DNA of 64,000 nucleotides from assembly GCA_963749565.1 (NCBI GenBank), contig CAVVNL010000021.1, positions 14,111 to 78,110 of the forward strand, written 5' to 3'. The position numbers and the translations under genes were made by a program. Within the stretch, counting starts at the first letter, position 1. Each line of letters starts with the position of its first letter. The stretch comes from an uncultured Acidobacteriota bacterium. GTDB lineage: Bacteria > Acidobacteriota > Vicinamibacteria > Vicinamibacterales > CAVVIG01. This document shows, in pieces, positions 23,341 to 55,106 of this stretch. Under the pieces are notes generated by a model. The model searched no databases, was not told where the DNA came from, and saw nothing but the letters and a program-made list of their open reading frames with translations.

Positions 23341-24451
23341 TGTCAGTTCGTCGTGCTGCGTGCTCGATGACGTTGTAGAGCGTGTCGCGCTCGACCGGCT
23401 CGCGGCCGGCGGCCCTGATGAGGCGCTCGATCTCGCGCGGCGTCATCGCCTCGGGCGTGCGCGCGCCGGCCATGTGATAGATCTTCTCTTCCTGCACGGT
23501 CCCGTCGAGATCGTCCACGCCGAACCACAGCGCCGTCTGCGCCACTTCGACGCCGGTCGCAATCCAGAACGCCTTGACGTGCGGGATGTTGTCGAGCATC
23601 AGCCGCGACACCGCGTGGACGCGCAGGCTGTCGGCCGCGCTCGGCGCCGGCAGCTTCCGCATCTGGTTGTTGTCGGGGTGGAACGCCAGCGGGATGAACG
23701 CCTGAAAGCCGCCGGTTTCGTCCTGCAGCGCCCGCGCCCGCAGCATGTGATCGACGCGCTCTTCCGCCGTCTCGATGTGCCCGTACAGCATCGTCACGTT
23801 GCTGCGCATGCCGAGGCGGTGAGCGGTGCGATGGATCTCGAGGTAGCGCTCGGTGCCGCACTTGTCGTGGGCGATCTTCCGGCGCACGCGGTCCGCGAAG
23901 ATCTCGGCGCCGCCGCCCGGCAGCGAGTCGAGCCCCGCCGCCATCAGCTCGCGCAGCACCTGCTCGTCGGTCATGCCATACAGGTCGGCGAAGAACGCGA
24001 TCTCGACCGCCGTGAAGCACTTCAGGTGGATGCCGGGACGGATCCGCTTGAAGCCCCGCAGCATCTCCGTGTAGTAGTCGAACGGCAAATCGGGGTGCAG
24101 GCCGTTGACGACGTGGACCTCGGTGAGCGGCTGGTGGGCGCGCTTCCGCAGCTTGTCCCACGCCTCCTCGAGCGACATCGTGTACGCGCCCGGATCGCCC
24201 GGCTTGAGCCGCGCGAACGAGCAGAACAGGCAGCTCGCCACGCAGACGTTGGTCGCTTCGAGGCGGATGTTGTAGTTGTAGAAGGTGCGATCGCCGTGGC
24301 GCTTCTCGCGCTCCCGGTTGGCCAGCGCGCCGACGGCCAGGAGATCCGGCGCCTCGAACAGGCGGACGCCGTCGTCCAGGTCGAGGCGCACGCCGGCGTC
24401 GAGCTTGTCTGCGATGTCGAGGAGGCCGGCGGAGGCGAGGCGAGCTTGCAA
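23291..24451 (-). CDS. Radical SAM futalosine-pathway enzyme, MqnE-like (aminofutalosine synthase) or MqnC
   Basis: CxxxCxxC cluster motif (NVCVASCLFCSF) with family-typical …LHPDLPFDYY…, …GGGAEIF…, …MLYGHIET… A TTG start at 24451 is proposed (upstream residues are repeat-encoded). The C-terminal tail is repeat-encoded. Confidence 0.7.
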   Translation of the reverse strand: MQARLASAGLLDIADKLDAGVRLDLDDGVRLFEAPDLLAVGALANREREKRHGDRTFYNYNIRLEATNVCVASCLFCSFARLKPGDPGAYTMSLEEAWDKLRKRAHQPLTEVHVVNGLHPDLPFDYYTEMLRGFKRIRPGIHLKCFTAVEIAFFADLYGMTDEQVLRELMAAGLDSLPGGGAEIFADRVRRKIAHDKCGTERYLEIHRTAHRLGMRSNVTMLYGHIETAEERVDHMLRARALQDETGGFQAFIPLAFHPDNNQMRKLPAPSAADSLRVHAVSRLMLDNIPHVKAFWIATGVEVAQTALWFGVDDLDGTVQEEKIYHMAGARTPEAMTPREIERLIRAAGREPVERDTLYNVIEHAARRTDIWALGLWAQAGLKPIA

Positions 24452-24546
24452 TCGGGTAATCGGGTAATCGGGTAATTGGGTAATTGGATTGCTCAATTGC
24501 CACAATCAATTACCCGATTACCCGATTATCCAATTACCCAGATTGC
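24449..24546. repeat. Long word hairpin built from GGGTAAT(C/T)G units with CAATTG-containing centre
   Basis: The left arm atcgggtaatcgggtaatcgggtaattgggtaattggattg and the right arm caatcaattacccgattacccgattatccaattacccagat flank the loop ctcaattgccac. Confidence 0.85.
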
Positions 24547-24553
24547 CGTGCCG

Positions 24554-25057
24554 TCAGGAGATGCCGAAGATCTGGATTCGCAGCGACCGCGCGCGCGGGC
24601 CGTCGAGCTCCGCCATCAGGATGCGCTGCCATTGCCCGAGCACGACTTCCCCGCCGCTGACCTGCAGCGTCAGGTTGTGGCCGAGGAGCAGGGCGCGGAG
24701 ATGCGAGTCGGCGTTCATCCGATCGCAGTCGGAATGATCCGGATTGTTGTGCAGCCACTCGGCGTCGCGCGCGACCATCTGCTCGAGGAAGCGCTTGATG
24801 TCGGAGAGCAGCGCCGTCTGGAACTCGTTGATGAAGAGGGAGCAGGTCGTGTGCATCGACCAGAGGCTGACGAGCCCTTCGCGCATGTTGAAGCGCTTCG
24901 ACGAACTCCATCACCTGATTGGTGAGGTCGACCAGCTCGATCCGCTGATCGGTCTGATGACCAGCGTCTCGCCATGAATCGTAAGGCCGCCAACCGTCGC
25001 TGTCGCCACCTCTTCGACGGGCCGCTCGCGAACGGTGACGGTCGAACTCTTGCTCAT
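24554..25057 (-). CDS. yjbQ: YjbQ/UPF0047-family protein (secondary thiamine-phosphate synthase)
   Basis: …WSMHTTCSLFINE…HLRALLLGHNLTLQVSGGEVVLGQWQRILMAELDGPR… (ORF 24554-24886). The N-terminus MSKSSTVTV… (ATG at 25057) is in other frame(s). There are frame break(s) at about 24890-24960. Confidence 0.75.
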
Positions 25058-25194
25058 GCGGGTTCCTCTTGGCTGTTATGGAGTGTCCAGGTGCGAACAG
25101 GACATGTTACGCAAAAAGATGCACCCTGAGGCAACTCGCGCCTTCCGGTATACTCCGGCTAGTCCGGGCCTCGTACCGGACACTTACGATACCT

Positions 25195-25440
25195 TGACGT
25201 TCGCCCCGGCGGCCACGCGAAGTGGGTGCGAAGCCCACACGGTCCCGCCACTGTAAGCGGCTAGCGACGCTACGCTCTGGTCCCTGGTTCCTGGTCCTTC
25301 GTGCTTGGTCAGGTCCTTGGTCCCGCCACTGAGCCGCTGGCTTGGGAAGGCGCACGTAGATCGCATCGATCCGCGAGTCAGGAAACCTGGCCATCGGGGG
25401 CGTCCTTTTCCCGGCGCGCAAGACGCCGGAAGGAGCCCGG
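25195..25440 (+). promoter_or_regulatory. Cobalamin (B12) riboswitch with candidate SD-sequestering platform
   Basis: Core elements: GGTGCGAAGCCCACACGGTCCCGCCACTGTAAGCGG (25224-25260), GCCACTGAGCCGCTGGCTTGGGAAGGCG (25324-25351) and the B12 box AGTCAGGAAACCTGGCC (25376-25392). These are followed by the hairpin GGCGTC…GACGCC and the SD GGAAGGAG before the ATG at 25441. Confidence 0.8.
25276..25325. repeat. Direct word repeat (GGTCC(C/T)TGG units) inside the riboswitch variable region
   Basis: Sequence is ctggtccctggttcctggtccttcgtgcttggtcaggtccttggtccc, lying between the CTGTAAGCGG and GCCACTG riboswitch elements. Confidence 0.7.
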
Positions 25441-26118
25441 ATGAGCGTTGTCCCCCCCAAGCCGCGCGCCGCGATCTCATGGAGCGGCGGCAAAGACAGC
25501 TGCGCGGCGCTGCAGCGTGCGCGCGACGCGTTCGACGTCGTGGCCATGATCACGATGTTCGACGAGGACGCCGCGCGCAGCCGCTCCCACGGCCTGCGGC
25601 CCGAGGTGCTCGCGGCGCAGGCCGATCGCCTCGGGCTCCGCCAGGTCATCGGCCGGTGCACCTGGGCGACCTACGACGCGTGCTTCGCGCAGGCCCTTCG
25701 CGAAGTTGCATCCGACTCCGTCACGCACGTGATCTTCGGCGACATCCTGTTCGACGAGCACCGGCGATGGGCCGAACGCATGTGCGAGGACGCCGGCCTT
25801 GCGGCCGTCGAGCCGCTTTGGGGCTCTTCGACGACGACGTTGTTTCACGAATGGGTGGCGTCGGGCGCCGACGCGCTGATCGTCACGACGCGCGCCGCGC
25901 TGCTCGACGACCGCTGGCTGGGCCGGCGACTGAGCGCCGACCTGCTTCCGCTGTTCGAGCAGCTCGGCGTCGACCCCTGCGGCGAGCGCGGTGAATACCA
26001 CACGGTCGTCACCAACAGCCCGTTGTTCTGCCGGCCCCTGAAGCTGCGCGCGAACGGCTCGGTGCAGCGCGCCGACTGCTGGGCGCTCGACATGGTCCCC
26101 GATGCTGCGGGCGAGTGA
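25441..26118 (+). CDS. DUF71/COG2102 PP-loop ATP pyrophosphatase (Dph6 N-domain-like), copy 1
   Basis: Intact 225 aa. It has the PP-loop SWSGGKDS and the family C-terminal motif DPCGERGEYHT. It is the first gene after the riboswitch. Confidence 0.8.
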   Translation: MSVVPPKPRAAISWSGGKDSCAALQRARDAFDVVAMITMFDEDAARSRSHGLRPEVLAAQADRLGLRQVIGRCTWATYDACFAQALREVASDSVTHVIFGDILFDEHRRWAERMCEDAGLAAVEPLWGSSTTTLFHEWVASGADALIVTTRAALLDDRWLGRRLSADLLPLFEQLGVDPCGERGEYHTVVTNSPLFCRPLKLRANGSVQRADCWALDMVPDAAGE

Positions 26119-26967
26119 CATCACGTTCTCGTATGGGCGCCGTCCGGCCGACGAAATCCGGCTAAAGCCGGACACCACGTACCGCAGGCTGACGGTCCGG
26201 CTGAAGCCGGACACTACGCACGGGACGCGTACGTCCTGAAAGGGGTGTCGCTCGAGGTCAAGCGCGGCACGATCGTCGGCCTGCTCGGTCCGAACGGCTC
26301 CGGCAAGACGACGCTGCTGCGCATCATCTCGGGCGTCCTGAAGCCGCTCGCCGGACGCGTGTGGCTCGACGGACGGCCGATCGAGCAGCTGACGCGGCGC
26401 GATCTCGCCCGCCGGGTCGCGGTCGTGCCGCAGGAAACGCACTCGACCTTCGACTTCAGCGTGCTCGACATGGTGCTGATGGGCCGGTACCCGCACCTCG
26501 GCCCGTTCGAGCTCGAGGGCGCCGCCGACCAGGAGATCGCGCGGGACGCGCTGCGCGCCACGGGCACGGCCGCGCTCGACACGCGGGCGTTCGCCACCTT
26601 GAGCGGCGGCGAGAAGCAGCGCGTCGTGATCGCGAGCGCGCTCGCGCAGGCGTCGGACATGCTGCTGCTCGACGAGCCGACGGCGGCACTCGATCTTCGC
26701 TATCAGTTCGAGATTGCGACGCTGCTGCGGGGGCTGAACGTGGAGCGCGGCACGACGATGATCGTGTCGACGCACGACCTGAACCTGGCGGCGGCGCTCT
26801 GCGAGCGCATCGTGCTGCTCAAGCAGGGGCGGGTGCTCGCCCAGGGGCCGACGCGGGAGACGCTGACGGCGGAAAACATCCGCTTGCTCTACGACGTCGA
26901 CGCGGACGTGCAGTTTCATCCGCGCGCCGGTCACCTGACGGTGGTGCCCATTGCCCGAACGAGCTGA
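26102..26967 (+). CDS. ABC transporter ATP-binding protein, BtuD/FepC-type (5' end interrupted by REP-like insert)
   Basis: MLRASDITFSYGRRP (ATG at 26102) is followed by an insert of about 86 nt, then …VLKGVSLEVKRGTIVGLLGPNGSGKTTLL…LSGGEKQRV…LLLDEP… (ORF 26245-26967). The two parts are in different frames. Confidence 0.75.
26157..26212. repeat. Two REP-like stem-loops (TCCGGC-TAAA-GCCGGA and GTCCGGC-TGAA-GCCGGAC) inside the ABC ATPase 5' coding region
   Basis: Elements at 26157-26172 and 26195-26212, each followed by ACAC(C/T)ACG. In one frame they translate as the low-complexity peptide RLKPDTT. Confidence 0.8.
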
Positions 26968-27997
26968 GGCGATCGCCGGATTCCGGCCGCGCACGCCGAT
27001 TCGACGCCGGCTGATGTGGACGCTGGCGGGTTTCGGCACGCTCGCCGCCGGCGCCTGCCTGCTCGCGCCGCTCGTCGGCAGCACGCGCATCAGCCTGGCC
27101 GCGGTGTTCGACCGGTCGATCCCGTACGCCGACAACATCGACGCGCAGATTTTCTTCGTCGCGCGGCTGCCGCGCGTGCTCGCCGCGGCGCTCGTCGGCA
27201 GCGCGCTGGCGCTCTCCGGCGTCGTGTTTCAGGCGCTGCTGCGGAACCCGCTGGCGTCGCCCGACACGCTCGGCGTCTCCGCGGGCGCGTCCCTCGGCGC
27301 GATGATGGCGATCACCTTCGACCTCGATTTCTCGCTGCTCGGCATCTCGGCCGTGCCGCTGGCGAGCTTCTCCGGGTCGATCGGCGCGCTGGCGATCGTG
27401 TACGGCCTGTCGGCGGCCAGACGGCGCGGAACCTCCGCCGTCGTGCTGCTGCTCGGCGGCGTGACGCTGCACGCTGCTGCTGTCGGCGGTCATCGCGTTC
27501 GTGCAGTACCTGGCGGATTTCACGCGAGACGTTCCGCAACGTGCGCTGGCTGATGGGATCGCTCGACGTCGCCTCCTTTTCGCCGATCGTCGCGGCGCTC
27601 GTGCCGATGGCGATCGCGTGGGCCGGATTCGCCACGCTGCCGCGGGTGCTCGATCTCATCAGCGTCGGCAGCGAATCGGCCGCCGCGCGCGGCGTCAACG
27701 TCGAGCGGACGGAGCGCGTCGCGCTCGTCAGCGCGTCGCTGGCCACCGGCGCCGCGGTGTCGCTGGCGGGCCCGGTCTCGTTTGTCGGCATCATCGTGCC
27801 GCACCTCGTGCGGCTGATCGTCGGCGCGGATCATCGGCTCGTGCTGCCGGCGTCGGCGCTCTTCGGCGCCGCGTTTCTCATCGGCTGCGACCTCGTCGCG
27901 CGCACCATCATCGCGCCGCTCGAGCTGCCGGTCGGCATCGTCACCGCCATCATCGGAGGCCCGGTATTTCTTATGGCTGCTGTTCCGCCGCGCATGA
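26951..27997 (+). CDS. FecCD/BtuC-type ABC permease
   Basis: …RLPRVLAAALVGSALALSGVVFQALLRNPLASPDTLGVSAGA… (ORF 26951-27553), then …GPVSFVGIIVPHLVRL… (the 27016-28635 frame). The terminal FLWLLFRRA* is in a third frame (TGA at 27995-27997). There are at least two frame breaks. Alternative start: ATG at 27014. Confidence 0.8.
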
Positions 27998-28874
27998 AGC
28001 TCGTTCGCGTCGATCGCGCTCGTCGTCCTTGCAGGCTCGCGGCGTCTCTCGAGGCCGCGGGCGCCGGCGCCCAGAGCGCCGAGGGACCCCGCCGCATCAT
28101 CTCGCTCGTGCCCGCGACGACCGAAATGCTGTTCGCGATGGGCGCAGGCGACCGGGTCGCCGGCGTCAGCAACTACGACCGCTTTCCGCCGGAGGTCGCG
28201 CGGCTTCCGCGCGTCGGCGGACTGCTCGATCCGGACGTCGAACGGGTGCTGTCGCTGAAGCCGGACCTCGTCATCGTCTACGACACGCAGACGGATCTGA
28301 AGCGGCAGCTCGAACGCGCCCGCATTCCGATCTTCGGCTACCGGCATCGCGACCTGCGGGACATCACCGAGACGATGCGGGCGCTCGGCGCGCGCATCGG
28401 CGCCAGGGCTGCCGCGGACGCCGCGGCGAGCCGCATCGAACAGCAGCTGGCCGCCATCGGGACGCCGCGTCGCAGGCCGGCCGAGGCCGAAAACGCTGCT
28501 CGTCTTCGGGCGGGAGCAGGGCACGCTGCGCCACATCAACGCGAGCGGCGGCTACGGATTCCTCCACGACGTCCTCGAGCTCGCCGGCGGCGCCAACGTG
28601 CTCGCCGATCTGCACGAAGCAGGCGGTCGACATGAGCACGGAGATGGTCCTGACGCGGGCGCCCGAGGTGATCCTCGAGCTGCACTACGGCGATTCGCTC
28701 AGGCCCGAGCGGCTGGGCCCGGAGCGGCTGGTGTGGAACGCGCTCGCGTCCGTCCCGGCGGTGAGAACCAATCGCGTCTACCTGCTCGGCGGCGACGAGT
28801 TCGTCGTCCCGGGGCCGCGGATCGTGATCGCGGCGGAACGGTTTGCGCGGACGCTGCACCCGGAGGCGCGATGA
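27994..28874 (+). CDS. Periplasmic cobalamin/siderophore-type substrate-binding protein (BtuF-like)
   Basis: ATG at 27994 overlaps the permease stop (ATGA). …RRIISLVPATTEMLFAMGAGDRVAGVSNYDRFP…LKPDLVIVYD… The C-terminal part is in ORF 27501-28874 (…RTNRVYLLGGDEFVVPGPR…). There are several frame breaks. Confidence 0.75.
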
Positions 28875-28900
28875 CGTGGCCGACGCCCGAATCTGGTCAT

Positions 28901-28950
28901 CTGGTCATCTGGTTATTTGGTCATTGATTGGGGATTTGGGTCGATTGTTG
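28901..28950. repeat. Left arm of GGTCATCTGG-word inverted repeat flanking the four-helix-bundle gene
   Basis: aatctggtcatctggtcatctggttatttggtcattgattggggatttgg is near-identical to the reverse complement of 29346-29395. Confidence 0.85.
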
Positions 28951-29315
28951 AGCGCAGGTTGGTGCGGGCAGTGCGCAGCGAGCTTCGCGAAGATCGCGCG
29001 CAACTCGCTCGCTTCGGCGCGCGCGGGATCGCACGTCGAGACGGCGAGAAGCTGCGACTTCGGTCGATGACATCGAGCCAGTAGACGCGATTCGTCGGTT
29101 TCTTCGACGACGATCTGAGCTTCGCGATGAACTCGAGCTCGCGAGCGAGCGCTGCACGCAGCGCGATAGTTCGCGCCGACTGACGTGGCACTTTTTGCCA
29201 ATTGTCGGCCGATAACCTGGCCGCAGGCGCATGAGGAAACTTGTCGATCAGCCGTAAGACCGTGAGCGCAAAAGAGATCGTCCGTTGCTTTCAATTGCTC
29301 GCTCTGAGCGCTCAT
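28905..29315 (-). CDS. Four-helix-bundle protein (23S rRNA IVS-protein / Avd-like family)
   Basis: …IGRQLAKSATSVGANYRAACSARSRA (ORF 28905-29357), then EFIAKLR… and …VYWLDVI… (the 28913-29191 frame), typical of TIGR02436-type proteins. There is one frame break near 29130. Both ends abut repeat arms. Confidence 0.65.
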   Translation of the reverse strand: MSAQSEQLKATDDLFCAHGLTADRQVSSCACGQVIGRQLAKSATSVGANYRAACSARSRARVHREAQIVVEETDESRLLARCHRPKSQLLAVSTCDPARAEASELRAIFAKLAAHCPHQPALNNRPKSPINDQITR

Positions 29316-29345
29316 AGCGATCGATTCACATACATGCCAGTCGTA

Positions 29346-29395
29346 CCAATCCATCAATCAATGACCAGATAACCAGATGACCAAATGACCAAATG
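29346..29395. repeat. Right arm of GGTCATCTGG-word inverted repeat
   Basis: Sequence is ccaatccatcaatcaatgaccagataaccagatgaccaaatgaccaaatg. Confidence 0.85.
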
Positions 29396-30080
29396 TATGA
29401 TTTCCTGGTCGAGCGGCAAGGACAGCGCGTGGATGGTGCACGTGCTGCGGCGGCGTGGTGACGTGCAGCTGGCTGGATTGTTGACGACCATCAACGAGGC
29501 CGCGGAACGGGTGGCGATGCATGCGGTGCGTGTCGACGTCCTGGAGGCGCAGGCAGACGCACTGGGGCTGCCGCTGTGGAAGATCCCCATTCCGTCGCCG
29601 TGCCCGAACGAGGTCTACGAGCGCGCGATGGGTGCGGCGGTCGCCCGTGCCGTCGCCGAGGGCTTCACCCACATGGCGTTCGGCGATCTGTTCCTCGAGG
29701 ACGTCCGGCGCTATCGGGAGGAACGGCTCGCGGGCACGGGGCTGACGCCGCTGTTCCCGCTCTTCGGCGCCGACACGGCAGCGCTTGCCCGCGACATGAT
29801 CGCCGGTGGCCTTCGTGCCCGCATCACCTGCCTGGATCCCAAGGTGATCGATCGATCGTTTGCCGGCCGGGAGTTCGACCACGCGCTTCTGGCGGAGCTC
29901 CCGCCGGCAGTCGATCCGTGCGGCGAGCGCGGCGAGTTCCACACCTGCGCCTACGCGGGCCCGATGTTCCACCACCCCGTCCCCGTCGAAACGGGCATCA
30001 TCGTCGAGCGGGACGGGTATGTCTTCACGGACCTGACGTTGGCGACAGAATCCAGTCAATCTGGTCATTTGGTCATCTAG
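29385..30080 (+). CDS. DUF71/COG2102 PP-loop ATP pyrophosphatase, copy 2
   Basis: PP-loop SWSSGKDS and C-terminal DPCGERGEFHT. The first 4 codons and the last 10 or so are repeat-encoded (a start at ATG 29397 is also possible). Confidence 0.8.
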   Translation: MTKCMISWSSGKDSAWMVHVLRRRGDVQLAGLLTTINEAAERVAMHAVRVDVLEAQADALGLPLWKIPIPSPCPNEVYERAMGAAVARAVAEGFTHMAFGDLFLEDVRRYREERLAGTGLTPLFPLFGADTAALARDMIAGGLRARITCLDPKVIDRSFAGREFDHALLAELPPAVDPCGERGEFHTCAYAGPMFHHPVPVETGIIVERDGYVFTDLTLATESSQSGHLVI

Positions 30081-30161
30081 TCATCTGGTCATTGATTGGG
30101 GGATTGAACGGCTCAATCTTCCAATCAATGACCAGATAACCAGATAACCAGATGACCAAAT
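30057..30161. repeat. Long word hairpin (GGTCATCTGG units, arms of about 40 bp)
   Basis: ctggtcatttggtcatctagtcatctggtcattgattgg, then a loop containing GATTGA-acggc-TCAATC, then ccaatcaatgaccagataaccagataaccagatgaccaaat. Confidence 0.9.
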
Positions 30162-30176
30162 ATCCGCAATCGGATT

Positions 30177-30947
30177 GTGTGTCTCACCGAGGAGACCACC
30201 GAGACGCTGTACCTCCTTGGCGAAGGCGACCGCGTGGTCGGTGTGTCCGGATACACCGTGAGGCCGCCTGAAGCGCGCAGCAAGCCGAAGGTATCCGCAT
30301 TCATCAGCGCGAAGTTCGACCGCATCGAGGCGCTCCGTCCCGATCTCGTGCTCGCGTTCTCCGACCTGCAGGCGGACATTTCCGCCGAGCTCGTGAAGCG
30401 TGGCATCGCCGTCATGACGTTCAACCAGCGCACCGTCGCCGAGATTCTGCAGATGATCCAGATCGTGGGCGGGCTGGTCGGCTGCCAGGATCGAGCCGAA
30501 CAGCTGGTAAATCGCCTGACCGCGAATCTCGATCGGATCCGCGAGTCGGCGGGGCGCTTTCCGACCCGGTTGCGAGTCTTCTTCGAGGAGTGGGACGACC
30601 CGTTGATCTCGGGGATTCGATGGGTCGAGGAGCTGGTCGCGATTGCGGGCGGCGATGCGATTTTCCCCGAGCTGGCTGAGGCGCGCCTCGCACGCAACCG
30701 TATCGTGGCCGTTTCAGAGGTTGTCCGGCGGAACCCGGAGGTGGTGTTCGCCTCGTGGTGCGGCAAGAAAGTCCAGGCGGCGAGGATCCGCGAACGAGAC
30801 GGCTGGGATCGCATCAGCGCGGTGGTTCACAACCGAATCTTCGAGGTCAAATCGACGTACATCCTGCAGCCGGGCCCTGCGAGCCTGACGGAGGGCGTTG
30901 GCCGGATTCATCATGTTCTGTGCCAGCTCCATGGCCTGTCCCCTTAG
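30177..30947 (+). CDS. BtuF-like cobalamin-binding protein lacking a signal peptide
   Basis: It begins directly with the first beta-strand (R-I-)VCLTEETTETLYLLGEGDRVVGVSGY… …LRPDLVLAFSD… and is intact. GTG at 30177 (ATT at 30174 is possible). The upstream in-frame stop at 30150-30152 leaves no room for a signal peptide. Confidence 0.75.
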   Translation: MCLTEETTETLYLLGEGDRVVGVSGYTVRPPEARSKPKVSAFISAKFDRIEALRPDLVLAFSDLQADISAELVKRGIAVMTFNQRTVAEILQMIQIVGGLVGCQDRAEQLVNRLTANLDRIRESAGRFPTRLRVFFEEWDDPLISGIRWVEELVAIAGGDAIFPELAEARLARNRIVAVSEVVRRNPEVVFASWCGKKVQAARIRERDGWDRISAVVHNRIFEVKSTYILQPGPASLTEGVGRIHHVLCQLHGLSP

Positions 30948-30996
30948 CTGTTATCCTTTACGTCCATAATGTCCTTGTGATGATCGAGCGCGGCGC

Positions 30997-33900: not shown

Positions 33901-34054
33901 GGCAACGCAGGATTACGTCGATCGAGTGAAGCCCCTGTATCCCGACGACTGGCTGACCCTGGTTCGCTCGGCGCAGGCCCTGTCGATTCAAAAGATTCAG
34001 GACTACGTCGCCACGCTCACCGCCAACGGCCCGCTCCTGCCAGAGAGCCCGTAA
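30997..34054 (+). CDS. Large (about 1000 aa) secreted protein of unknown function
   Basis: Signal peptide MARTALLCALSLALSSSPLWAGA. ORF 30997-32370 continues in ORF 32279-34054, with one frame break at about 32280-32370. It is Ala/Leu/Arg-rich and helical, and I recognise no motif. Confidence 0.6.
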
Positions 34055-43827: not shown

Positions 43828-43882
43828 GGCTTAGGGACGAAGGATTAGAGGTTAGAGGTTAGGGGTTAGGGAATAGGGCATA
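43828..43882. repeat. One-arm word array (GGTTAGAG/GGTTAGGG units)
   Basis: Sequence is ggcttagggacgaaggattagaggttagaggttaggggttagggaatagggcatag, lying between the mqnA/D start and the FtsX permease stop. Confidence 0.7.
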
Positions 43883-43887
43883 GAGTT

Positions 43888-45078: not shown

Positions 45079-45079
45079 C

Positions 45080-48660: not shown

Positions 48661-48671
48661 TTTTGCGAGTG

Positions 48672-48790
48672 TACTATACCGGGGGGACGGGTCTCCGTAC
48701 CGGTACGGGGGCCTGTCCCCCTGTACTGGTACGGGGCCTGCCCCGTTACTGGTACGGGGACCTGTCCCCCGTACTGTACGGGTGCCGGCG
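48672..48790. repeat. Palindromic word cluster (GTACGGGG / CCCCGTAC units)
   Basis: ccgtaccggtacgg (perfect palindrome), ggtacggggcctgccccgttac and ggtacggggacctgtcccccgtac form several adjacent hairpins between the PilB-like stop and the next gene start. Confidence 0.75.
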
Positions 48791-48793
48791 GGC

Positions 48794-50596
48794 TTACTGA
48801 GTGACGCGGACGACTTCTTCGAGCGTGGTGGTGCCTTCCCGGACGCGCGCCAGGCACTGCTCGCGAAGAGTGCTCATGCCGTTCTCTCGGGCCGCTTTCA
48901 CCAGCATCGGCTCGGAGGCACGCGCAAGGACAAGCTCGCGGATCGATTCGGTCATCCGCATCATCTCGTAGATGCCCATGCGGCCCGTAAAGCCCGTCCC
49001 CCGGCAGTGCTCGCAACCGGCGCCGCGCATCAGGAGCTCGGGAACCTCGTCGCCGAACAGATGTCTGACGCCGGCCGGGACCGGCAGCTCTGTCGGACAA
49101 TGGACGCAGATCCGCCGCACCAGCCGCTGGGCGACGATCGCCAGGATTCCCGACGCGAGGAAGTAGGGCTCGATACCCATGTCGAGCAGGCGCGTGATGG
49201 TGCCGGCGGAGCTGTTGGTGTGCAGCGTCGCAAACACGAGATGGCCCGTCAGCGACGCCTCGATCGCCGTAGTCAGCGTCTCGCTGTCGCGAATCTCACC
49301 GACCATGATGACGTCGGGATCCTGCCGGAGCACGGCGCGCAGCCCTTTGGCGAACGTGAAGCCGGCCTTTTCGTTGATCTGCCCCTGATTGATCCCGACC
49401 ACTTCGTACTCGACCGGATTCTCGATCGTCGTGATGTTCTTGCCACCCTCCACCAGCTCGGTGAGGGCGGCGTAGAGCGTGGACGTCTTGCCGCTGCCGG
49501 TCGGACCGGTGATGAGAATGAGCCCCTCGGGACGGCGGATGGTCTCCCGAAAGTTGTCGAGGAGCGGCGCCCGCATGCCCAGGGCCGTCAACTCGAGGCG
49601 CAGCGAGGCCTGATCGAGCATCCGCAGCACCAGCTTCTCGCCGTGGATCGTGGGAAACGTCGACGCGCGGAAGTCGAGCCGGCGGGTGCCGATGGTGACA
49701 GTCAGCCGCCCGTCCTGCGGCAGCCGGTGCTCGGCGATGTCCATGCCGGCCAGGACCTTGAGCCGCGCGCAGATCGCCGGCGCCACGGCGGTGGAAATGT
49801 AGCCGATGTCGTTGAAGGTGCCGTCGACGCGGAAGCGCACGCGCAGGTTGTCGGGCATCCGCTCCAGGTGAATATCGCTCGCGCCCGCGCTCGCGGCGCG
49901 AGCCAGGATGCGATCGACCGTCCGCATCGCCGTCTGCTCCGTCGCCTCGTCGTACTCTTCTGCGTCGTCCTGGTCGGCTTTGCGCCGGCCCTTGGCCTGC
50001 CGCCGATCGGTTTTCACCGCCTCGCGCCTGTCCGATTCGAACGATTCTATCGATACCGCCTCCGTGCTCCCGTCGATTACGGACTCGAACATGCCCTGCG
50101 CGTAAAAGCGATCCAGCGCGGCCACGATTTCGTCTTCGAGCGCGACGAGCGTCTGGATCTGACATCCCGAGGCGAAACGAAGATCGTCGAGCGCGGCCAG
50201 ATCCGTCGGGGATGCGATGGCGACCTGCAGCATAGTCCCGAGTTTCTGCAGCGGGACCGCCATGTGCTTGCGGGCCACTTTCTCGGGAAGCGCCTGGACG
50301 GCCGCGGGACTCACCGTGAACCCGTTGAGGCGCGTGGCGGCCACGCCCAGCTGCAGGCTCAACGCGCCGAGGACGGCGTCAGGCGTGGTGTATCCCAGAT
50401 CGATCAGCACCTGGCCGAGGCGCCGGTCGGAATTGCGTTGGTGCTCGATGGCGAGCGTCAGCTGCTCGCGCGTGATGAGCTGCCGCTCGAGCAAGACTTC
50501 GCCGAGCGCCGCGCCCGCGCGCTGTGGCGGGGGCGGCTTCACCGGGCCGGCACTCTTTGGATCTCGGGGCGGAGGGAGCCTGAACTCAAGTGCCAA
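48794..50596 (-). CDS. Type II/IV secretion-system ATPase (GspE/PilB family)
   Basis: Two N-terminal T2SSE_N-like repeats (…LGEVLLERQLITREQL…), Walker A GPTGSGKTST, Asp box, Walker B DPDVIMVGEIRD, His box and a C-terminal CxxC…CxxC. The start is uncertain (TTG at 50596 or GTG at 50542). Confidence 0.85.
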   Translation of the reverse strand: MALEFRLPPPRDPKSAGPVKPPPPQRAGAALGEVLLERQLITREQLTLAIEHQRNSDRRLGQVLIDLGYTTPDAVLGALSLQLGVAATRLNGFTVSPAAVQALPEKVARKHMAVPLQKLGTMLQVAIASPTDLAALDDLRFASGCQIQTLVALEDEIVAALDRFYAQGMFESVIDGSTEAVSIESFESDRREAVKTDRRQAKGRRKADQDDAEEYDEATEQTAMRTVDRILARAASAGASDIHLERMPDNLRVRFRVDGTFNDIGYISTAVAPAICARLKVLAGMDIAEHRLPQDGRLTVTIGTRRLDFRASTFPTIHGEKLVLRMLDQASLRLELTALGMRAPLLDNFRETIRRPEGLILITGPTGSGKTSTLYAALTELVEGGKNITTIENPVEYEVVGINQGQINEKAGFTFAKGLRAVLRQDPDVIMVGEIRDSETLTTAIEASLTGHLVFATLHTNSSAGTITRLLDMGIEPYFLASGILAIVAQRLVRRICVHCPTELPVPAGVRHLFGDEVPELLMRGAGCEHCRGTGFTGRMGIYEMMRMTESIRELVLARASEPMLVKAARENGMSTLREQCLARVREGTTTLEEVVRVTQ

Positions 50597-50858
50597 TATA
50601 CGACTCCGAAATCTTCTGAGGGACTAGACAGGACTCTTCTATCATGAAGCGTACCCAATCAGGACACGAGGTGAAGTGACTGTAGTGAGGGGGGTTAGGG
50701 CATTAGACGTGAAGCCCGAGGGCAGGAGACGCGTCCGGAAACAACACACAGCCTAACGGTATTGGCACAAACGAAGACCGTCTAACTTCCATCGCTCGAA
50801 CCGGTTATGTCTTGTGTGTTCCGTTTCGCGGGATCGTGTATCGACGGCGCACCTGCGG

Positions 50859-51065
50859 CTACGACTTGCTGTCTGTATATTCCTCGTGCCACGCCATCTG
50901 GATGGCTTCGAGCTTCGGCTCGTTCGAGGTCTTGGGATCGTCGTCGAACCCATCGAGCGCGAGCACGTGGGCGCGCAAATCCGTGAACCGGACAGTCAAC
51001 GGATCAATATCGGGCAACTTCTCGACCAGCGCGATCGCGATATCTTCGGCGTCTGTCCACTTCAC
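50859..51065 (-). CDS. iscX: Fe-S assembly protein IscX
   Basis: MKWTDAEDIAIALVEKLPDIDPLTVRFTDLRAHVLALDGFDDDP…, 68 aa. Confidence 0.85.
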   Translation of the reverse strand: MKWTDAEDIAIALVEKLPDIDPLTVRFTDLRAHVLALDGFDDDPKTSNEPKLEAIQMAWHEEYTDSKS

Positions 51066-51068
51066 GGC

Positions 51069-51449
51069 CTACCCTCCTGATTTCCCGAGCTGGATGCCGC
51101 CGCCTTCCTGCACGTAGTTCCGCGTGTACATCGGCAACTCGCAGACGACGTCGCCGGTGATGACGGCCTGGCAACCGAGCCGTGACCGCGCGGTCAGGCC
51201 CCAGGCGGTGTCCAGGCGATCGGCCTCGTCGTCCTGCATCTCGCTGAGGTGCTGCTCGCCTTCACGGATGATCACGTGGCAGGTCGTGCAGGCACAACTT
51301 CCGCCGCACGCGTGTTCGAGCGGGACGTGCAGATTTTTCGCGACGTCGAGAAACGACTCGGGCTTCCCGTGGTGTGAATACGGCAGCTTGCCGTGCTCGA
51401 ATTCGACGGTCTGCGACTCGCCGTCGATGATGAACGTAACTCTTGGCAT
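51069..51449 (-). CDS. fdx: ISC-type [2Fe-2S] ferredoxin
   Basis: MPRVTFIIDG… with the adrenodoxin-type motif CGGSCACTTCH…C. Confidence 0.85.
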   Translation of the reverse strand: MPRVTFIIDGESQTVEFEHGKLPYSHHGKPESFLDVAKNLHVPLEHACGGSCACTTCHVIIREGEQHLSEMQDDEADRLDTAWGLTARSRLGCQAVITGDVVCELPMYTRNYVQEGGGIQLGKSGG

Positions 51450-51470
51450 GTCCCCCTTCAACGCACGCAA

Positions 51471-51537
51471 ACCACGAAGTCGCGAAGATCACGAAGCGCT
51501 TGGTACTTTTCGTGTGCTTCGTGTCTTCGTGGTTTAC
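51471..51537. repeat. Word hairpin (CACGAAG / CTTCGTG units) between hscA and fdx
   Basis: AAACCACGAAGTCGCGAAGATCACGAAGCGC … CTTTTCGTGTGCTTCGTGTCTTCGTGGTTT. Confidence 0.85.
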
Positions 51538-53375
51538 AGTCGATCGATAGACTTTCCCGCCAGCGCGGCGTGGACCGAACGGTTCATCATCACCTCCGCC
51601 AGGTGCTGCGTGGCTTCGTTCAACGCGTGCGTCTTTTTCTGAATGAGCTCGCGATCCGGTCCGTTCAGAACCGATTTCAGCCCGGCCAGCTCCGCCTCGA
51701 TGCGCTCACGCTCGCCGGCGGCCAGCTCGGACTCGGCGATCGCCGGGAATTCGGGAGACCGGAGCGACTTCTCCGTCGCGCGCATCACCGACTCCGCTTC
51801 GTTGCGCGCCTCGATCAGCAGGCGCGCCGCGAAATCGGCTTCCGCGTTCTCGAACGAATCGAGCAGCATGCGCTCGACTTCCTCGTCGGTCAGCCCGTAG
51901 GACGGCTTGACCTCGATCGTCTGCTCGACATCCGTCCGCAGCTCGCGGGCGGTGACGCTCAGGATGCCGTTGGCGTCGATCTGGAACTGCACCTGGACCC
52001 GGGGCATGCCGGCAGGCATCGCGGGAATCCCGCGGAGCTTGAACCGCGCCAGCGAGCGGTTGTCGTCGACCAGCTCGCGCTCTCCCTGCAGCACGTGGAT
52101 GTCGACGGACGTCTGGTTGTCGACGAAGGTCGTGAACATCTCGCTGCCGGTCGCCGGGATGGTGGAATTCCGCATGATGATCTTCGACATCACGCCGCCC
52201 ATCGTCTCGATCCCGAGCGACAGCGGCGTCACGTCTAGCAGCAGCATCTCGCGGTTGCCGGTCATCAGGATGTCGGCCTGCACGGCCGCGCCGAGCGCGA
52301 CGACCTCGTCGGGATTGAGCTCGCTGTGCGGCGTCTTGCCGAACAGCTCGCCGACCAGACGACGAACCAGCGGAATGCGGGTCGAACCCCCGACCAGGAC
52401 CACTTCGTCGATCTGCGACGCCTCGAGCTCCGCATCGGCGAGCGCCTGACGGCACGGCTCGAGCGTGCGCTCGACGATCGGACGGATCGCCGCCTCGAGC
52501 TCGGTGCGGGTGATCCGCCGGCGATAGTCGCCAAGGGCGATCTCGGTTTCTTCGTTGTCGGACAGATCGAGCTTGGCCCGGATGACGGCCTGACGAATCG
52601 CCTGCACCTCGCCGCCGGTCGACGCAATCCGGCTGAAGCCGGATCCCGCATCTCCCAGGATCTGTTCCATCAGGATCAGGTCGATGTCGTCGCCGCCGAG
52701 GTGGGTGTCGCCGTTGGTCGACAGCACCTGGAAAACGCCGTCTTCGACCCGCAGAATCGAAATGTCGAACGTGCCGCCGCCGAAATCGTACACGGCAATC
52801 AGGCCGGCGTGGCGCTTGTCGAGGCCGTACGCGAGCGAGGCCGCAGTCGGCTCGTTGATGATGCGGAGGACGTCGAGGCCGGCAATGCGCCCGGCGTCGC
52901 GCGTGGCGGTCCGCTGTGCGTCGTTGAAGTAGGCGGGCACGGTGATGACGGCCCGGTCGACCTCCGGATCGATCTCGCCCTCTTCGGCGAAGTGCGCCTC
53001 GGCGCGGCGCTTGAGCTCTCGCAGGATGAACGCCGAGACCTCCGGCGCCGTGAACTCGCGCGCTCCCAGCCCGATCTTGACGATTCCTCCCGGGTCGCCG
53101 GCGAGGCGGAACGGGAACAACCCCGCTTCGTCGCCGACATCGTGCACGCCTTTCCCCATGAAGCGCTTCACCGAGTAGACGGTCCGGCCCGGGTCGGTCA
53201 GCAGCCGACGTTCGGCCTCGCGGCCGACGAAGACGGTGTGGTCCTCCGAAACCGAGACGACCGACGGGACGAGGCCGTCGCCGCTGCGATCGCGGATCAC
53301 GACGGGCACGCCGTCCTTGACGTAGGCGACGAGGGAGTTGGTGGTGCCGAGATCGATGCCGACTGTTTTGCTCAT
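51534..53375 (-). CDS. hscA: Fe-S chaperone HscA (Hsp70 family)
   Basis: [19 protein letters not shown]…[12 protein letters not shown]…[10 protein letters not shown]… Intact. Confidence 0.9.
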
Positions 53376-53385
53376 GCTGAGAGAA

Positions 53386-53468
53386 TCTCCACCACGGAGG
53401 CCACGGGGGACACGGAGGAACAAACCCGTACGTTTTGACCTCCGCGTCCTCCGCTTCCTCCGTGGTAG
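53386..53468. repeat. Word hairpin (CGGAGG / CCTCCG units) between hscB and hscA
   Basis: CCACCACGGAGGCCACGGGGGACACGGAGGAAC … GACCTCCGCGTCCTCCGCTTCCTCCGTGGTAGG. Confidence 0.85.
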
Positions 53469-53475
53469 GTAGTCT

Positions 53476-54180
53476 TCATGCCGTTAGCTCCCGCTCGATC
53501 CCCTCGAGCAGGTTGTTGATGTAGTTCCGCTCGAGCACTCGCTCGCGGAGGGCGCTCAGGATCGCCTGGCGCTCGGGGTCGTCTCCCTGGGATCCGGAAG
53601 CGGCGCCGAACGCGTCCCAGCGCGCTGACAGATCCTTCAACTCTGCCTCGTGCGCCGCCCGCTTGGCCTCAATCGGGGCGCGGGCGCGTTCGAGCCTCGC
53701 CCGCCACACGTCGGCGGCGGCGCCGCCGCTGCGGAGATCGCGCACCTCGTCGAGCTCTTCGTTGAGGGAAAAGACCTCTTCGAGCATCGTCGCCGGCACC
53801 GAGTCCTGCGCCCGTGGCGAAAACCCTTCGAGCCCGAGCAGGTATTCCGCGCGCGCGATCGGGTTGCGAAGCGTGCGATACGCGTCGTTCAGGTACGAGG
53901 ACCGCTCGAGGCTCGCGCGGCGCTCGGCCGGCGTCGCGTTGTAGAAGAAATCGGGATGGAACTGCCGGCTCAGCGTGCGAAAACGCTGCTCGAGATCAGC
54001 GGCGTCAAGATTGAGCCGGCGAGGCACGCCCATGAACGCGAAATAGTCGCCGTGACGGCCGAGGGTCAGGATCTGGCTGCACTGCGGACAGAAGTGGACG
54101 TCCACCGGCGCCCCACCGCCGCAGTTCCTGCAGTCCTGAAGCGTCCGGGTCGTGATTGGGGAAGACATAGAAAATGACAA
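53476..54180 (-). CDS. hscB: Co-chaperone HscB with N-terminal zinc-ribbon
   Basis: CRNCGG…CPQCSQ, then a J-domain (…[15 protein letters not shown]…[10 protein letters not shown]…) and a C-terminal helical domain. Confidence 0.8.
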
Positions 54181-54238
54181 GTCTCAACTGTCAAGTCTGA
54201 AGTCTCAATGAGACTTGAGACTTGAGACTTGAGATTTC
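54176..54238. repeat. Word hairpin (GAGACTTGA / TCAAGTCTC units) between iscA and hscB
   Basis: acaagtctcaactgtcaagtctgaagtctca-a-tgagacttgagacttgagacttgagattt. Confidence 0.85.
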
Positions 54239-54239
54239 C

Positions 54240-54566
54240 CTAGGCTCCGAAAGAGCTGCCGCACCCGCAAGTGGTCTTCGCGTTCGGATTGTTGAAGACG
54301 AAGCCTTTGCCGAGCAGGTCGGTGTCGTATTCGAGGACCGTCCCGTTCAGATAGAGAAGGCTCTTCTTGTCGACGAAGATCTTGGCGCCATCGGCGCCCT
54401 CGAAGATCTCGTCACCCATTCGCGCCTGCTTCTCCCACGAGAAGGTGTAGCTCAGGCCCGAGCATCCGCCGCCCTTGACGCCGACACGCAGTCCCCCCTC
54501 GGCGATGCCCTGCTTGGCCATCAAGGTGCGGATCTTCCGTGCGGCGTTCTCGCTGATCTCGATCAT
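54240..54566 (-). CDS. iscA: A-type Fe-S carrier IscA/ErpA
   Basis: …GGGCSGLSY…NPNAKTTCGCGSSFGA. Confidence 0.9.
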   Translation of the reverse strand: MIEISENAARKIRTLMAKQGIAEGGLRVGVKGGGCSGLSYTFSWEKQARMGDEIFEGADGAKIFVDKKSLLYLNGTVLEYDTDLLGKGFVFNNPNAKTTCGCGSSFGA

Positions 54567-54570
54567 GGTC

Positions 54571-54999
54571 TTACGCAGTCGGCTGCGCGTGCGTCCCGGC
54601 CGGCGTGGTCTTCGCGCCCTGCTGCTTCTTCTTGTAGTCGGAGATCGCCGCCTTGATCGCGTCCTCGGCGAGCACCGAACAATGAATCTTCACCGGCGGC
54701 AGGCTGAGCTCGGCCACGATGTCGGTGTTCTTGATCGCCAGCGCCTGGTCGACGGTCTTGCCCTTCAGCCATTCGGTCGCGAGGCTCGAGCTCGCAATCG
54801 CCGAACCGCATCCGAAGGTCTTGAACTTCGCGTCGTCGATGAGCCCGGTTTCCGGGTTCACCTTGACCTGAAGCTTCATGACATCGCCGCACTCGGGCGC
54901 ACCCACCAGGCCTGTGCCAACGTTCGGATCTTCTTTCGGCAGCGATCCGACGTTGCGCGGGTGTTCGTAGTGCTCGATTACCTTTTCCGAATAAGCCAT
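54571..54999 (-). CDS. iscU: Fe-S scaffold IscU
   Basis: MAYSEKVIEHYEHPRNVG…GAPECGDVMKL…FGCGSAIASSS…LPPVKIHCSVLA…. Confidence 0.92.
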   Translation of the reverse strand: MAYSEKVIEHYEHPRNVGSLPKEDPNVGTGLVGAPECGDVMKLQVKVNPETGLIDDAKFKTFGCGSAIASSSLATEWLKGKTVDQALAIKNTDIVAELSLPPVKIHCSVLAEDAIKAAISDYKKKQQGAKTTPAGTHAQPTA

Positions 55000-55015
55000 T
55001 TCTGCTCCTCAACTC

Positions 55016-55106
55016 AATCTGGTCATTTAGTCATCTGGTTATCTGGTCATTGATCGGTCAATTGATCAATCAATGACCAAATAACCAGATGACCAGATGA
55101 CCAAAT
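55016..55106. repeat. Long word hairpin (GGTCATCTGG units) between iscS and iscU
   Basis: caatctggtcatttagtcatctggttatctggtcattgatcggtcaattgatcaatcaatgaccaaataaccagatgaccagatgaccaaat. Same family as 30057-30161 and 28901/29346. Confidence 0.9.

Follow-up and report, generated by a model that had tools for sequence, protein, structure and literature searches.

Intergenic word-repeat hairpins of a Vicinamibacterales genome share their design with the arms of four-helix-bundle gene cassettes

In a 64,000-nucleotide stretch of contig CAVVNL010000021.1, from an uncultured soil acidobacterium of the Vicinamibacterales (this whole stretch is called the window below), spacers between genes hold long hairpins whose arms consist of degenerate tandem copies of a short word. 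These word hairpins are real, dispersed palindromic repeats and not artefacts, because they recur in many independent assemblies. We propose, with a probability of roughly 60%, that they belong to the same class as the arms of a cassette carrying a gene for a four-helix-bundle protein of the 23S rRNA intervening-sequence (IVS) type, and that the copies of the GGTCATCT word family are gene-less derivatives of that cassette. Since the same design flanks a four-helix-bundle gene in many phyla, at least some of the hairpins would be cassette copies without the gene. The proposal builds on the observed anatomy of the hairpins, their word families, their presence or absence at orthologous sites, the link of the GGTCATCT family to the cassette and the association of such arms with the gene across phyla.

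A gene-bearing element and its gene-less counterparts

The window contains one element in which two word arms enclose a gene, and two hairpins of the same word family. Tandem arrays were called with Tandem Repeats Finder (TRF; period 6-11, overlaps collapsed) and arms with an inverted-repeat finder. For folding, the gene-sense strand was taken as RNA, and z-scores refer to dinucleotide-preserving shuffles, 200 per hairpin; MFE is the minimum free energy.

Left arm, 28890-28940: ATCTGGTC x4.2 (28891-28924), then the inner stem ATTGATTGGGGATTTGG (TRF; aligns with hairpins C and D)
Decayed four-helix-bundle gene (TIGR02436/PF05635, 23S rRNA intervening-sequence protein), 28905-29357, minus strand: in the loop
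Right arm, 29340-29396: CCAATCCATCAATCA, then ATGACCAG x4.4 (29361-29395) (TRF; aligns with hairpins C and D)
Hairpin C, 30057-30161: gene-less GGTCATCT-family copy in the spacer between the PF01902 and Peripla_BP_2 genes; words ATCTGGTC x4.2 and ACCAGATA x4.0 (30059-30162); arms 30059-30107/30113-30161, 49 nt, 86% complementary; MFE -65.4 kcal/mol, z -12.3
Hairpin D, 55016-55106: gene-less GGTCATCT-family copy in the iscS-iscU spacer; words ATCTGGTC x4.2 and AATGACCA x4.4 (55017-55106); arms 55016-55061/55062-55107, 46 nt, 87% complementary; z -14.6

In the split element (28891-29395) the GGTCATCT arms and the inner stem ATTGATTGG are those of hairpins C and D, set 436 nt apart; all three elements align over about 90 nt, inner stem included. 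The gene in its loop matches TIGR02436 at 35.8 bits (cut-off 24) and PF05635 only at E 0.0086; against a hidden Markov model of intact orthologues it reaches E 1.4e-26, with a second frame at 4e-9. Its frame is open, and several stretches are out of frame relative to the intact orthologues. No PF05635/TIGR02436 open reading frame (ORF) was found between the arms of the other nine hairpins of the window, whose loops measure 3-20 nt.

In six relatives (L005, L019, L038, L041, L047 and L053) GGTCATYT arms with 4 to 16 copies enclose an orthologue of the gene, which is frameshifted in L005 and L053 and intact in the other four. Both intact proteins that were scanned against Pfam pass PF05635, and one of them also passes TIGR02436 and matches PDB 2RLD. 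The element is located just upstream of a PF01902 gene in the window and in five of the six relatives, the junction in L038 not being checkable. Where this junction is empty, stop and start codons overlap or nearly abut (ATGA-type). In L002 it holds the arms and a remnant of about 100 nt that codes for the C-terminal motif of the family (E 0.004), and in L021 a one-arm remnant only. This single junction displays a full series of states, namely empty, full cassette, decayed gene, arms with a remnant, and one arm. Hairpins C and D, in which both arms and both halves of the inner stem are kept and the gene is gone, look like the end of this series. They are probably internal-deletion derivatives of the cassette, related to it as a miniature inverted-repeat transposable element (MITE) is to its parent element. 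The inventory of the window would then read as one decayed cassette, two gene-less GGTCATCT copies, seven hairpins of other word families and one array of palindromic units.

Word arms around four-helix-bundle genes in other phyla

A gene-profile search gave 80 four-helix-bundle loci from metagenome contigs (GC 35-67%). Complementarity was scored between the 160-nt flanks on either side of the gene, scores of at least 14 were counted, and 211 equally spaced shifted positions in the same loci served as controls. Complementary word-repeat flanks were found at 60 of the 80 genes and at 1 of the 211 controls, the median scores being 18.25 and 8.0, respectively (Mann-Whitney p 6e-32). At least one flank carried a tandem array at 72 of the 80 loci, mostly of period 7 and with a median of 4.4 copies. 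The arms are polar: the one upstream of the gene has more G than C in 52 of 58 cases and more T than A in 53 of 58, and upstream arms contain GATT 133 times and AATC 6 times. The TGATTG/CAATCA core, to which an earlier note on this DNA had drawn attention, is thus borne out as a real polarity of the cassettes. Gene-less hairpins of the Vicinamibacterales have the same chirality, with G exceeding C in the 5' arm in 31 of 38.

Word arrays also surround an annotated four-helix-bundle gene on finished plasmids of Planktothrix, Nostoc, Chlorohelix, Treponema and Bernardetia (four phyla), and their arms are clearly complementary in four of the five (scores 16.5-24.5) and weakly so in Bernardetia (11.5). 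On three of the five plasmids the gene is placed between co-directional genes that look defence-related. The Planktothrix gene (L137, 1468-1827) lies between drmD and a gene for an MmeI-type enzyme, and the Chlorohelix gene (L139, 1465-1833) between genes for a DUF1156 protein and a HEPN protein. The latter is flanked by two complete word hairpins of about 110 nt (1330-1465 and 1840-1960) in direct orientation, with no split stem. Cassette contigs hold 47 further arrays outside the cassette in 203 kb, 11 of them with the cassette's own word. Of the eight closest homologues, the seven with scored arms have GGTCATCT arms, and the words differ along with the protein lineage.

A more far-reaching idea, which we consider tentative and on balance doubtful, is that gene and word arms together make up a minimal selfish cassette, of a class that spans phyla and has so far escaped recognition. 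The word array would be recognised by the ring-shaped protein of the same cassette, in the manner of iterons or multi-site transposon ends, and this protein, alone or with a host enzyme, would maintain or spread the cassette. Gene-less hairpins and one-armed arrays would be MITE-like derivatives and relics. Such a class might take in the arrays of Acidobacteriota, Xanthomonas, cyanobacteria, Bacteroidota and Beggiatoaceae, with the 23S rRNA intervening sequences as the special case of an insertion into rRNA, and repeated 'CRISPR-associated' calls for the gene (CRISPR, clustered and regularly interspaced short palindromic repeats) would be artefacts of the arms.

Placement, gain and loss of the hairpins

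The other hairpins and arrays of the window are the following.

Hairpin A, 23255-23340: word GGGCTTC/GGGCTTCAG, degenerate, period 7-9; z -3.4
Hairpin B, 24449-24546: word GGGTAATY, period 8, with a GATTG/CAATTG/CAATCA centre; words AATCGGGT x4.4 and ATTACCCG x4.4 (24450-24544); arms 24454-24486/24507-24539, 33 nt, 91% complementary; starts 7 nt past the stop codon of a UPF0047 gene; z -10.5
Hairpin E, 51469-51537: word CACGAAG, hscA-fdx spacer; words CACGAAGT x2.9 and TTCGTGTGC x2.7 (51473-51531); arms 51469-51495/51509-51535, 27 nt, 85% complementary; z -6.2
Hairpin F, 53386-53468: word CCACGGAGG, hscB-hscA spacer; words CCACGGAGG x3.0 and CCTCCGCGT x2.7 (53392-53462); z -9.3
Hairpin G, 54176-54238: word GAGACTT, period 7, iscA-hscB spacer, C-rich 5' arm; TGAGACT x3.7 (54209-54234); arms 54179-54207/54209-54237, 29 nt, 86% complementary; z -4.5
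Hairpin H, 60455-60545: GAGACTT-like words; TTGAGAT x4.7 (60508-60540); an HhH-GPD ORF reads through to a stop at 60481; z -3.1
Hairpin J, 21270-21375: word GGCAGGAAG; z -6.9
Palindromic-unit array, 48672-48790: 24-25-nt unit TACTGGTACGGGGCCTGTCCCCCT x3.5 in the spacer between a T2SSE ATPase gene and the next gene; z -3.4
One-armed array, 16806-16838: ATTGATG x4.7, adjoining the start of a minus-strand gene on its upstream side
One-armed array, 20213-20255: octamer ATTGCATG x4.4, directly 3' of the gene for signal recognition particle (SRP) RNA
One-armed array, 43845-43878: GGTTAGR x3.6, co-directional spacer

Every hairpin listed in the earlier note exists within a few bases of where it had been placed, as seen by direct reading, with the inverted-repeat finder and with TRF. 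The stems are 25-45 bp long at each of them except 48672-48790, and the arms hold about 3-5 degenerate tandem words of 7-9 nt. Inverted arms span 27-49 nt, are 85-91% complementary and lie 0-20 nt apart. Folding, which the note had suggested for each locus, agreed: ten hairpins gave MFE values of -26 to -66 kcal/mol and z-scores of -3.1 to -14.6, at most 1 of 200 shuffles being equally stable. Other parts of the description needed correction. The words are short and tandem as stated, but measure 7-9 nt instead of 7-10 nt, and those of GGTCATCT and GGGTAATY have a period of 8, not 9-10. The inner stem ATTGATTGG/CCAATCAAT with its CAATTG-type centre, thought to be common to the family, occurs in hairpins B, C and D and in the split element, but is absent from A, E, F, G and H. 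The hairpin at 48672-48790, which had been grouped with the others, is a related yet distinct subtype in which every unit is itself palindromic. Finally, the range given for the family (24449-55106) does contain hairpins, but the family extends further (21270-21375, and one-armed at 16806-16838 and 20213-20255), and within the range the gene-bearing copy at 28891-29395 and the one-armed array at 43845-43878 had been overlooked. The TTAGGG units of the latter (GGTTAGAGGTTAGGGGTTAGGG) resemble telomere repeats, probably by coincidence.

The usual chirality is a G-rich 5' arm with a complementary 3' arm, and it is reversed in the GAGACTT family (hairpins G and H). Of the words, those of hairpins A (GGGCTTC) and B (GGGTAATY) alone contain a GGG tract; it is absent from GGTCATCT, CACGAAG and GAGACTT and irregular in CCACGGAGG. 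ORFs do run into the arms, as had been observed, but most such cases are 5' over-extensions of longest-ORF calls; homologues of hscA, for example, align only from residue 15-17 of the ORF starting at 53423. Some 3' read-throughs are genuine: that of the HhH-GPD ORF, which ends at 60481, and those that form the C-termini of four-helix-bundle proteins, for example NDQITR.

Four spacers between cistrons of the isc operon (51-56.5 kb, minus strand: iscS, iscU, iscA, hscB, hscA, fdx) are filled by hairpins D, G, F and E, which begin, on the mRNA strand, 0-11 nt past the upstream stop codon. Hairpin D begins 11 nt past the iscS stop and ends 16 nt before the iscU ATG, leaving a GAGGAG free. Hairpin E begins at the hscA stop codon and is followed by a free Shine-Dalgarno-like motif, GAAGGGGG. 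Hairpin F lies 7 nt past the hscB stop, and the sole GGAG-like motif overlaps the end of its stem; no Shine-Dalgarno-like motif is evident between hairpin G and the next gene.

To place these spacers among relatives, we used 55 loci obtained by an HscB search with one genome per species, most of them labelled as Acidobacteriota, Vicinamibacterales or Vicinamibacteria metagenome-assembled genomes; the best full-length HscB matches among them have 76-78% identity, and the window itself is not part of this collection. The isc operon is syntenic in all 55. Its orthologous spacers range from an overlap or 0 nt up to about 130 nt, and long ones hold a hairpin of other words, a hairpin of related words or one arm only. 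At hscB-hscA, GGGCTTYGG, GAACGCMGA and TGATTCT occur as other words, the CACGGAGG/CACCAAGG family is found in the window, L003, L004 and L024, and kin of hairpin F, whole or half, are present in L003, L004, L024, L008, L015, L041 and L009. GGTCATYT occupies iscS-iscU in the window, L002 and L038. The word family of hairpin A reappears in the hscB-hscA spacer of L001, and the word of hairpin B as an inverted pair in L038 at 18061-18268. Spacers that vary from 0 to about 130 nt and hold other words, half-hairpins or nothing indicate that repeat elements were gained and lost. The architecture is shared and the sequence turns over, as had been claimed, the word being the same in both arms of each orthologous spacer and different between genomes. 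The words are not locus-specific, contrary to what had been thought: the vocabulary is limited and shared, copies of the same family stand at unrelated loci, and orthologous spacers are filled or empty.

Presence and absence vary among near relatives too, since soil metagenome contigs skip 51450-51543 (hairpin E; DNA contig, run X1) and 55010-55127 (hairpin D), and metatranscriptome contigs of at least 97% likeness (runs X23 and X24) join 55019 or 55031 to 55118, omitting hairpin D. The RNA data consist of assembled metatranscriptome contigs (Logan) only, and the skip of 55020-55117 in them could reflect either a strain without the hairpin or a jump of reverse transcriptase across the stem.

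For a census we combined the window with the 55 loci (991 kb in total). TRF called 400 arrays of period 6-11, compared with 48 (uncollapsed) in shuffled sequence. According to coding calls from a crude GC3-based model, 209 arrays lie in the non-coding 18.5% of the sequence and 191 in the remaining 81.5%, which corresponds to 1.14 per kb outside and 0.24 per kb inside coding calls; the enrichment in spacers for which the earlier note had proposed a repeat scan is therefore present. A previous RNAfold scan for hairpins seeded on 6-mers (2093 in real and 1082 in shuffled sequence) was too permissive at 65% GC and was replaced by this census. Intergenic arrays are almost all of period 7, 8 or 9 (108, 56 and 39, respectively), have 54% GC as opposed to 64% for intergenic DNA overall, and in about half of the cases possess an inverted partner at most 60 nt away, the others being solo. 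Several genomes share words, such as GGTCATCT (28 arrays at 11 loci), AATTACCC (7 at 6) and CCTCCGTGT (9 at 6). Hairpins number 41 in co-directional (0.38/kb), 7 in convergent (0.24/kb) and 2 in divergent spacers (0.06/kb). They are thus extragenic, downstream of genes and rare in divergent spacers, a placement like that of repetitive extragenic palindromic (REP) elements.

Two kinds of candidate cassette in the isc region were discarded. Arrays pairing across a whole gene, for example around iscU, scored only in L008, L035 and L036 and represent same-family words in neighbouring spacers, and the spacers of about 500 nt downstream of the isc operon are taken up by an ordinary gene of opposite orientation; its predicted protein appears CBS-domain-like by eye only. 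The hscA-fdx spacer of L049, which also has GGAAGTG-type words, contains an insertion (12687-14228) with an ORF of about 490 aa that is IS110-type transposase-like, again by eye only. Isc spacers of L004 (178-368), L027 (1419-1722) and L020 (12923-13384) hold tandem units of about 100 nt that end in GGGGGTGGGGCCCCGC-like palindromes, a repeat family unrelated to the word hairpins.

An Rfam scan placed no family on the word hairpins, and its sole matches in the window were the SRP RNA gene next to the array at 20213-20255 (small bacterial type; 20284-20382, minus strand, 73.5 bits) and a cobalamin riboswitch (25219-25385, plus strand, 57.4 bits) upstream of plus-strand genes starting at about 25441; no rRNA was detected. 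The Peripla_BP_2 binding-protein gene next to hairpin C (30177-30947) lies near this riboswitch. Between hairpins J and A, a single ORF of 516 aa (21551-23101, minus strand) joins a NadA domain (residues 7-292) to an N-terminal Fe/Mn superoxide dismutase domain (residues 378-464); a fusion, a read-through or an overlooked stop codon could each account for it.

Weighing the explanations and comparison with known systems

We favour the following account. Elements of the cassette class would be gained, lost and decayed at the DNA level, spreading by some copying or recombination mechanism, with slippage altering the number of words. They would persist where they do little harm, that is, in spacers that are transcribed and lie downstream of a gene, where they fit between its stop codon and the ribosome-binding site that comes next. 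The other word families (seven hairpins) probably share the cassette origin, as their architecture and chirality suggest. Judging from rRNA intervening sequences, the transcribed stems may be RNase III substrates, and cuts would segment the isc mRNA into iscS / iscU-iscA / hscB / hscA / fdx.

Several points weigh against this account. The link to the gene is established for the GGTCATCT family only: window words outside this family match cassette words 49 times where 40 matches are expected and the maximum of 200 shuffles is 53. The 991 kb of Vicinamibacterales sequence contain just one four-helix-bundle site, and, apart from L002, no gene remnant was detected in the larger-loop relatives of other word families. 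Cassette-bearing and empty genomes are interspersed on a weak, star-like neighbour-joining tree without support values, and we cannot tell repeated insertion from repeated loss or from allelic exchange. Neither a transposase nor a target-site duplication or conserved end tag turned up, so that the case for mobility is one of distribution. The crude coding model behind the census belongs here as well. As to RNA, mismatches on the sense strand comprise 18 G·T and 22 A·C, hence no G·U excess, neither strand folds consistently better, and assembled metatranscriptome contigs both cover and skip hairpin D. The G·U test gives no sign of RNA-level selection, and the selection for long double-stranded RNA that the earlier note had put forward did not find support here.

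In line with that note's view, the hairpins could instead be host-selected RNA elements that arose in place. A long stem in polycistronic mRNA would then be kept because it is useful, for instance as a barrier to 3' exonucleases, by uncoupling cistrons or by adjusting the ratios of expression in an operon. This is how REP elements work, and likewise the RNase III sites between cistrons in phage T7. We regard this explanation as unlikely. It accounts for the preference for transcribed spacers, the depletion in divergent promoter spacers and the position between stop codon and next ribosome-binding site; purging of harmful insertions can also explain that placement. RNA contigs cover parts of hairpins D and G. 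Kin of the hscB-hscA hairpin are kept where HscB is 61-78% identical to that of the window, and in four aligned hscB-hscA hairpins 5 of the 23 pairs kept have changed on both sides. The earlier note had proposed such co-variation as a check, and compensatory pairs were indeed found; they are, however, equally expected from DNA-level copying, by inverted duplication or template switching within the palindrome. The missing G·U bias and strand preference speak against selection on the RNA, and the operon also works where, as in some relatives, its spacers measure 0-20 nt and hold no hairpin. One and the same spacer can hold different words or half a hairpin or be empty, and identical families are found at functionally unrelated loci and around a selfish-looking gene.

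Two further explanations operate on DNA, and we consider each of them improbable. In the first, the hairpins are mutational by-products with neither mobility nor function: slippage makes arrays of 7-9 nt in AT-richer spacers, and template switching within quasi-palindromes copies one arm onto the other. About half of the intergenic arrays are one-armed, a single orthologous site shows copy numbers between about 4 and 16, the symmetry of the mismatch spectrum is compatible with a process at the level of DNA, and over-representation of heptamers has been ascribed to slippage (PMC4692102). This leaves unexplained the copies of about 90 nt at unrelated loci with the same non-repetitive inner stem and ends, the consistent chirality, the bracketing of one gene family in 60 of 80 cases across phyla, and the presence or absence of whole elements beside ATGA-type stop and start codons.

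In the second, the words are DNA-level arrays, either iteron-like binding sites, for example for a pentameric four-helix-bundle protein or a nucleoid protein, or non-B DNA in the form of cruciforms or G-quadruplexes that affect replication or supercoiling. The number of copies per arm (about 4-5, median 4.4), the deposition of the homologue 2RLD with five chains, the variation of words between cassette lineages along with the protein, and the absence of an RNA strand signature would all fit, as would the GGG tracts in the words of hairpins A and B, which are like the G-quadruplex repeats of Xanthomonas (PMC4692102). Most words, however, have no G-tract, and binding is purely hypothetical. Gene-less hairpins far outnumber the single decayed gene in the window, and the bias towards transcribed spacers is not predicted.

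An origin as REP elements or REPINs mobilised by a RAYT transposase is very improbable. They too are intergenic, hairpin-forming repeats that come in families downstream of genes, and the window has a genuine GTAG-headed REP-like array of its own: at 13213-13288 a 31-nt unit, GTAGCGCAGGACTTTAGTCCTGCCCGTGAT, is repeated x2.6, with the palindrome GCAGGACTTTAGTCCTGC inside and GTAG heads at 13213, 13244 and 13274. This array looks like a classical GTAG-type REP cluster, a class apart from the word hairpins, which have no GTAG or CGTC head at the ends of A to J, are built of tandem short words and not of a single palindrome of 20-40 nt, and are associated with the four-helix-bundle gene and not with RAYT.

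Other classes were dismissed. As the earlier note had already stated, the hairpins are not CRISPR arrays, in which repeats of 23-47 nt alternate with unique spacers of similar length, usually near cas genes; here 7-9-nt units stand head to tail without spacers, and the neighbours are isc, hsc, fdx, T2SSE and other such genes. Its view that they are not intrinsic terminators likewise stands: they do not combine a short GC-rich stem with a U-tract, the isc hairpins have no U-tract, and between 47 and 62.8 kb no terminator-like site coincided with any word hairpin and a promoter scan placed nothing on them. The only hairpin with flanking A and T runs, at 62519-62584, is an ordinary-looking bidirectional terminator between convergent genes (A-run on one side, T-run on the other) that has no words and is unrelated to the word hairpins. 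A classification as MITEs was rejected in turn, since no direct repeat is consistently shared at the junctions (longest shared words 0-6 nt, differing per site) and the parent-like cassette encodes only the four-helix-bundle protein, with no known recombinase fold.

If the cassette origin is correct, a common gene family of unknown function gains a testable context between word-repeat arms, and a widespread class of bacterial simple-sequence repeats gains a candidate origin. False CRISPR calls and low-complexity peptide tails in protein databases (GHLVIWSSGH, NDQITR) would be explained as well. In this genome, an essential operon such as isc has long double-stranded stems at nearly every cistron junction, so that the Vicinamibacterales lend themselves well to the question of whether such stems undergo processing and are of any importance. 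We see the most useful lead in the cross-phylum tie between the gene family and widespread short tandem repeats.

Among known systems, phage T7 early mRNA with its RNase III sites between cistrons and the processing stems of rRNA operons offer an analogy of the 'works like' kind only, in that cuts in long double-stranded stems could yield separately stable mRNAs; there is no sequence relation, and cleavage is hypothetical here. REP elements and REPINs resemble the word hairpins as extragenic hairpin families downstream of genes and within operons, and are regarded as mobile DNA that is not autonomous and may influence the stability of mRNA (Bertels and Rainey 2011, PMC3116915; PMC3733652). They differ in that the word hairpins lack a GTAG/CGTC head and have arms made up of tandem words; a scan of some, but not all, ORFs of the 64-kb window showed no RAYT gene.

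The STRR heptamers of cyanobacteria and the TAACTGA repeats that abound in Beggiatoaceae, Cyanobacteria and Bacteroidetes usually have 2-6 copies (PMC4679880). These are intergenic tandem heptamers of patchy distribution, often directly upstream of start codons, and the same phyla hold many four-helix-bundle genes; in contrast to our elements, they are almost only direct repeats, with one inverted case in the BOGUAY genome (PMC4679880). Xanthomonas has about 185 GGGAATC arrays, with 70-75 convergent inverted pairs per genome and a preference for four units (Rehm et al. 2015, PMC4692102). The arrays lie beside stop codons, are mostly transcribed and were read as G-quadruplex motifs, and the four-helix-bundle gene is not mentioned (PMC4692102). 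The heptameric GGGAATC/GGGGAYT repeats of Xanthomonas and Nostoc share with the window a high GC content, intergenic tandem arrays of about four units of some 7 nt at stop codons, single or in inverted pairs, variation of length and sequence between close relatives, and transcription. The difference is that Xanthomonas uses one G-tract word per genome, whereas here at least seven words of 7-9 nt occur and most have no GGG in the unit.

PF05635 has a homologue in Avd, which diversity-generating retroelements use as an accessory protein (PMC10053308). Two reports place 23S_rRNA_IVP genes in association with cas loci or CRISPR arrays (PMC3936711, PMC10910872). Such CRISPR-associated calls may be explained by the array-like look of the arms, together with a defence-type neighbourhood. 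We found no paper on a general association of the gene with word arms outside rRNA, in a literature search that left most subscription journals outside. Three separate oddities, namely 23S intervening sequences with an S23p ORF, intergenic heptamers of Xanthomonas, cyanobacteria and Beggiatoaceae, and 'CRISPR-associated' 23S_rRNA_IVP genes, appear to share one architecture.

The closest counterparts, along with the inverted heptamer pairs of Xanthomonas, are the 23S rRNA intervening sequences with an S23p ORF known from Coxiella, Leptospira, Xanthomonas and Brucella (PMC4990558). The Coxiella element has a 28-bp terminal stem, 2-3 tandem GACAGAT heptamers that vary between strains and a decaying S23p ORF, and RNase III cuts its stem at the first repeat (PMC4990558). 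Like such elements, those described here have terminal inverted repeats with a stem of at least 20 bp (arms of 27-49 nt), tandem heptamer-type repeats of variable number in the stem (4 to 16 copies), near the 5' end and upstream of the ORF, and, at 28891-29395 only, a frameshifted PF05635/TIGR02436 ORF in the loop, such ORFs being prone to decay; versions without an ORF exist in both, for example in Salmonella. They differ in location, all copies in the window lying in mRNA spacers between protein-coding genes and not in helix 25 or 45 of 23S rRNA, and further in that most have no ORF, that several word families coexist in one genome, and that RNase III cleavage is presumed by analogy. We see in the element type a variant both of IVS elements and of inverted heptamer pairs, one that had not previously been described from this phylum.

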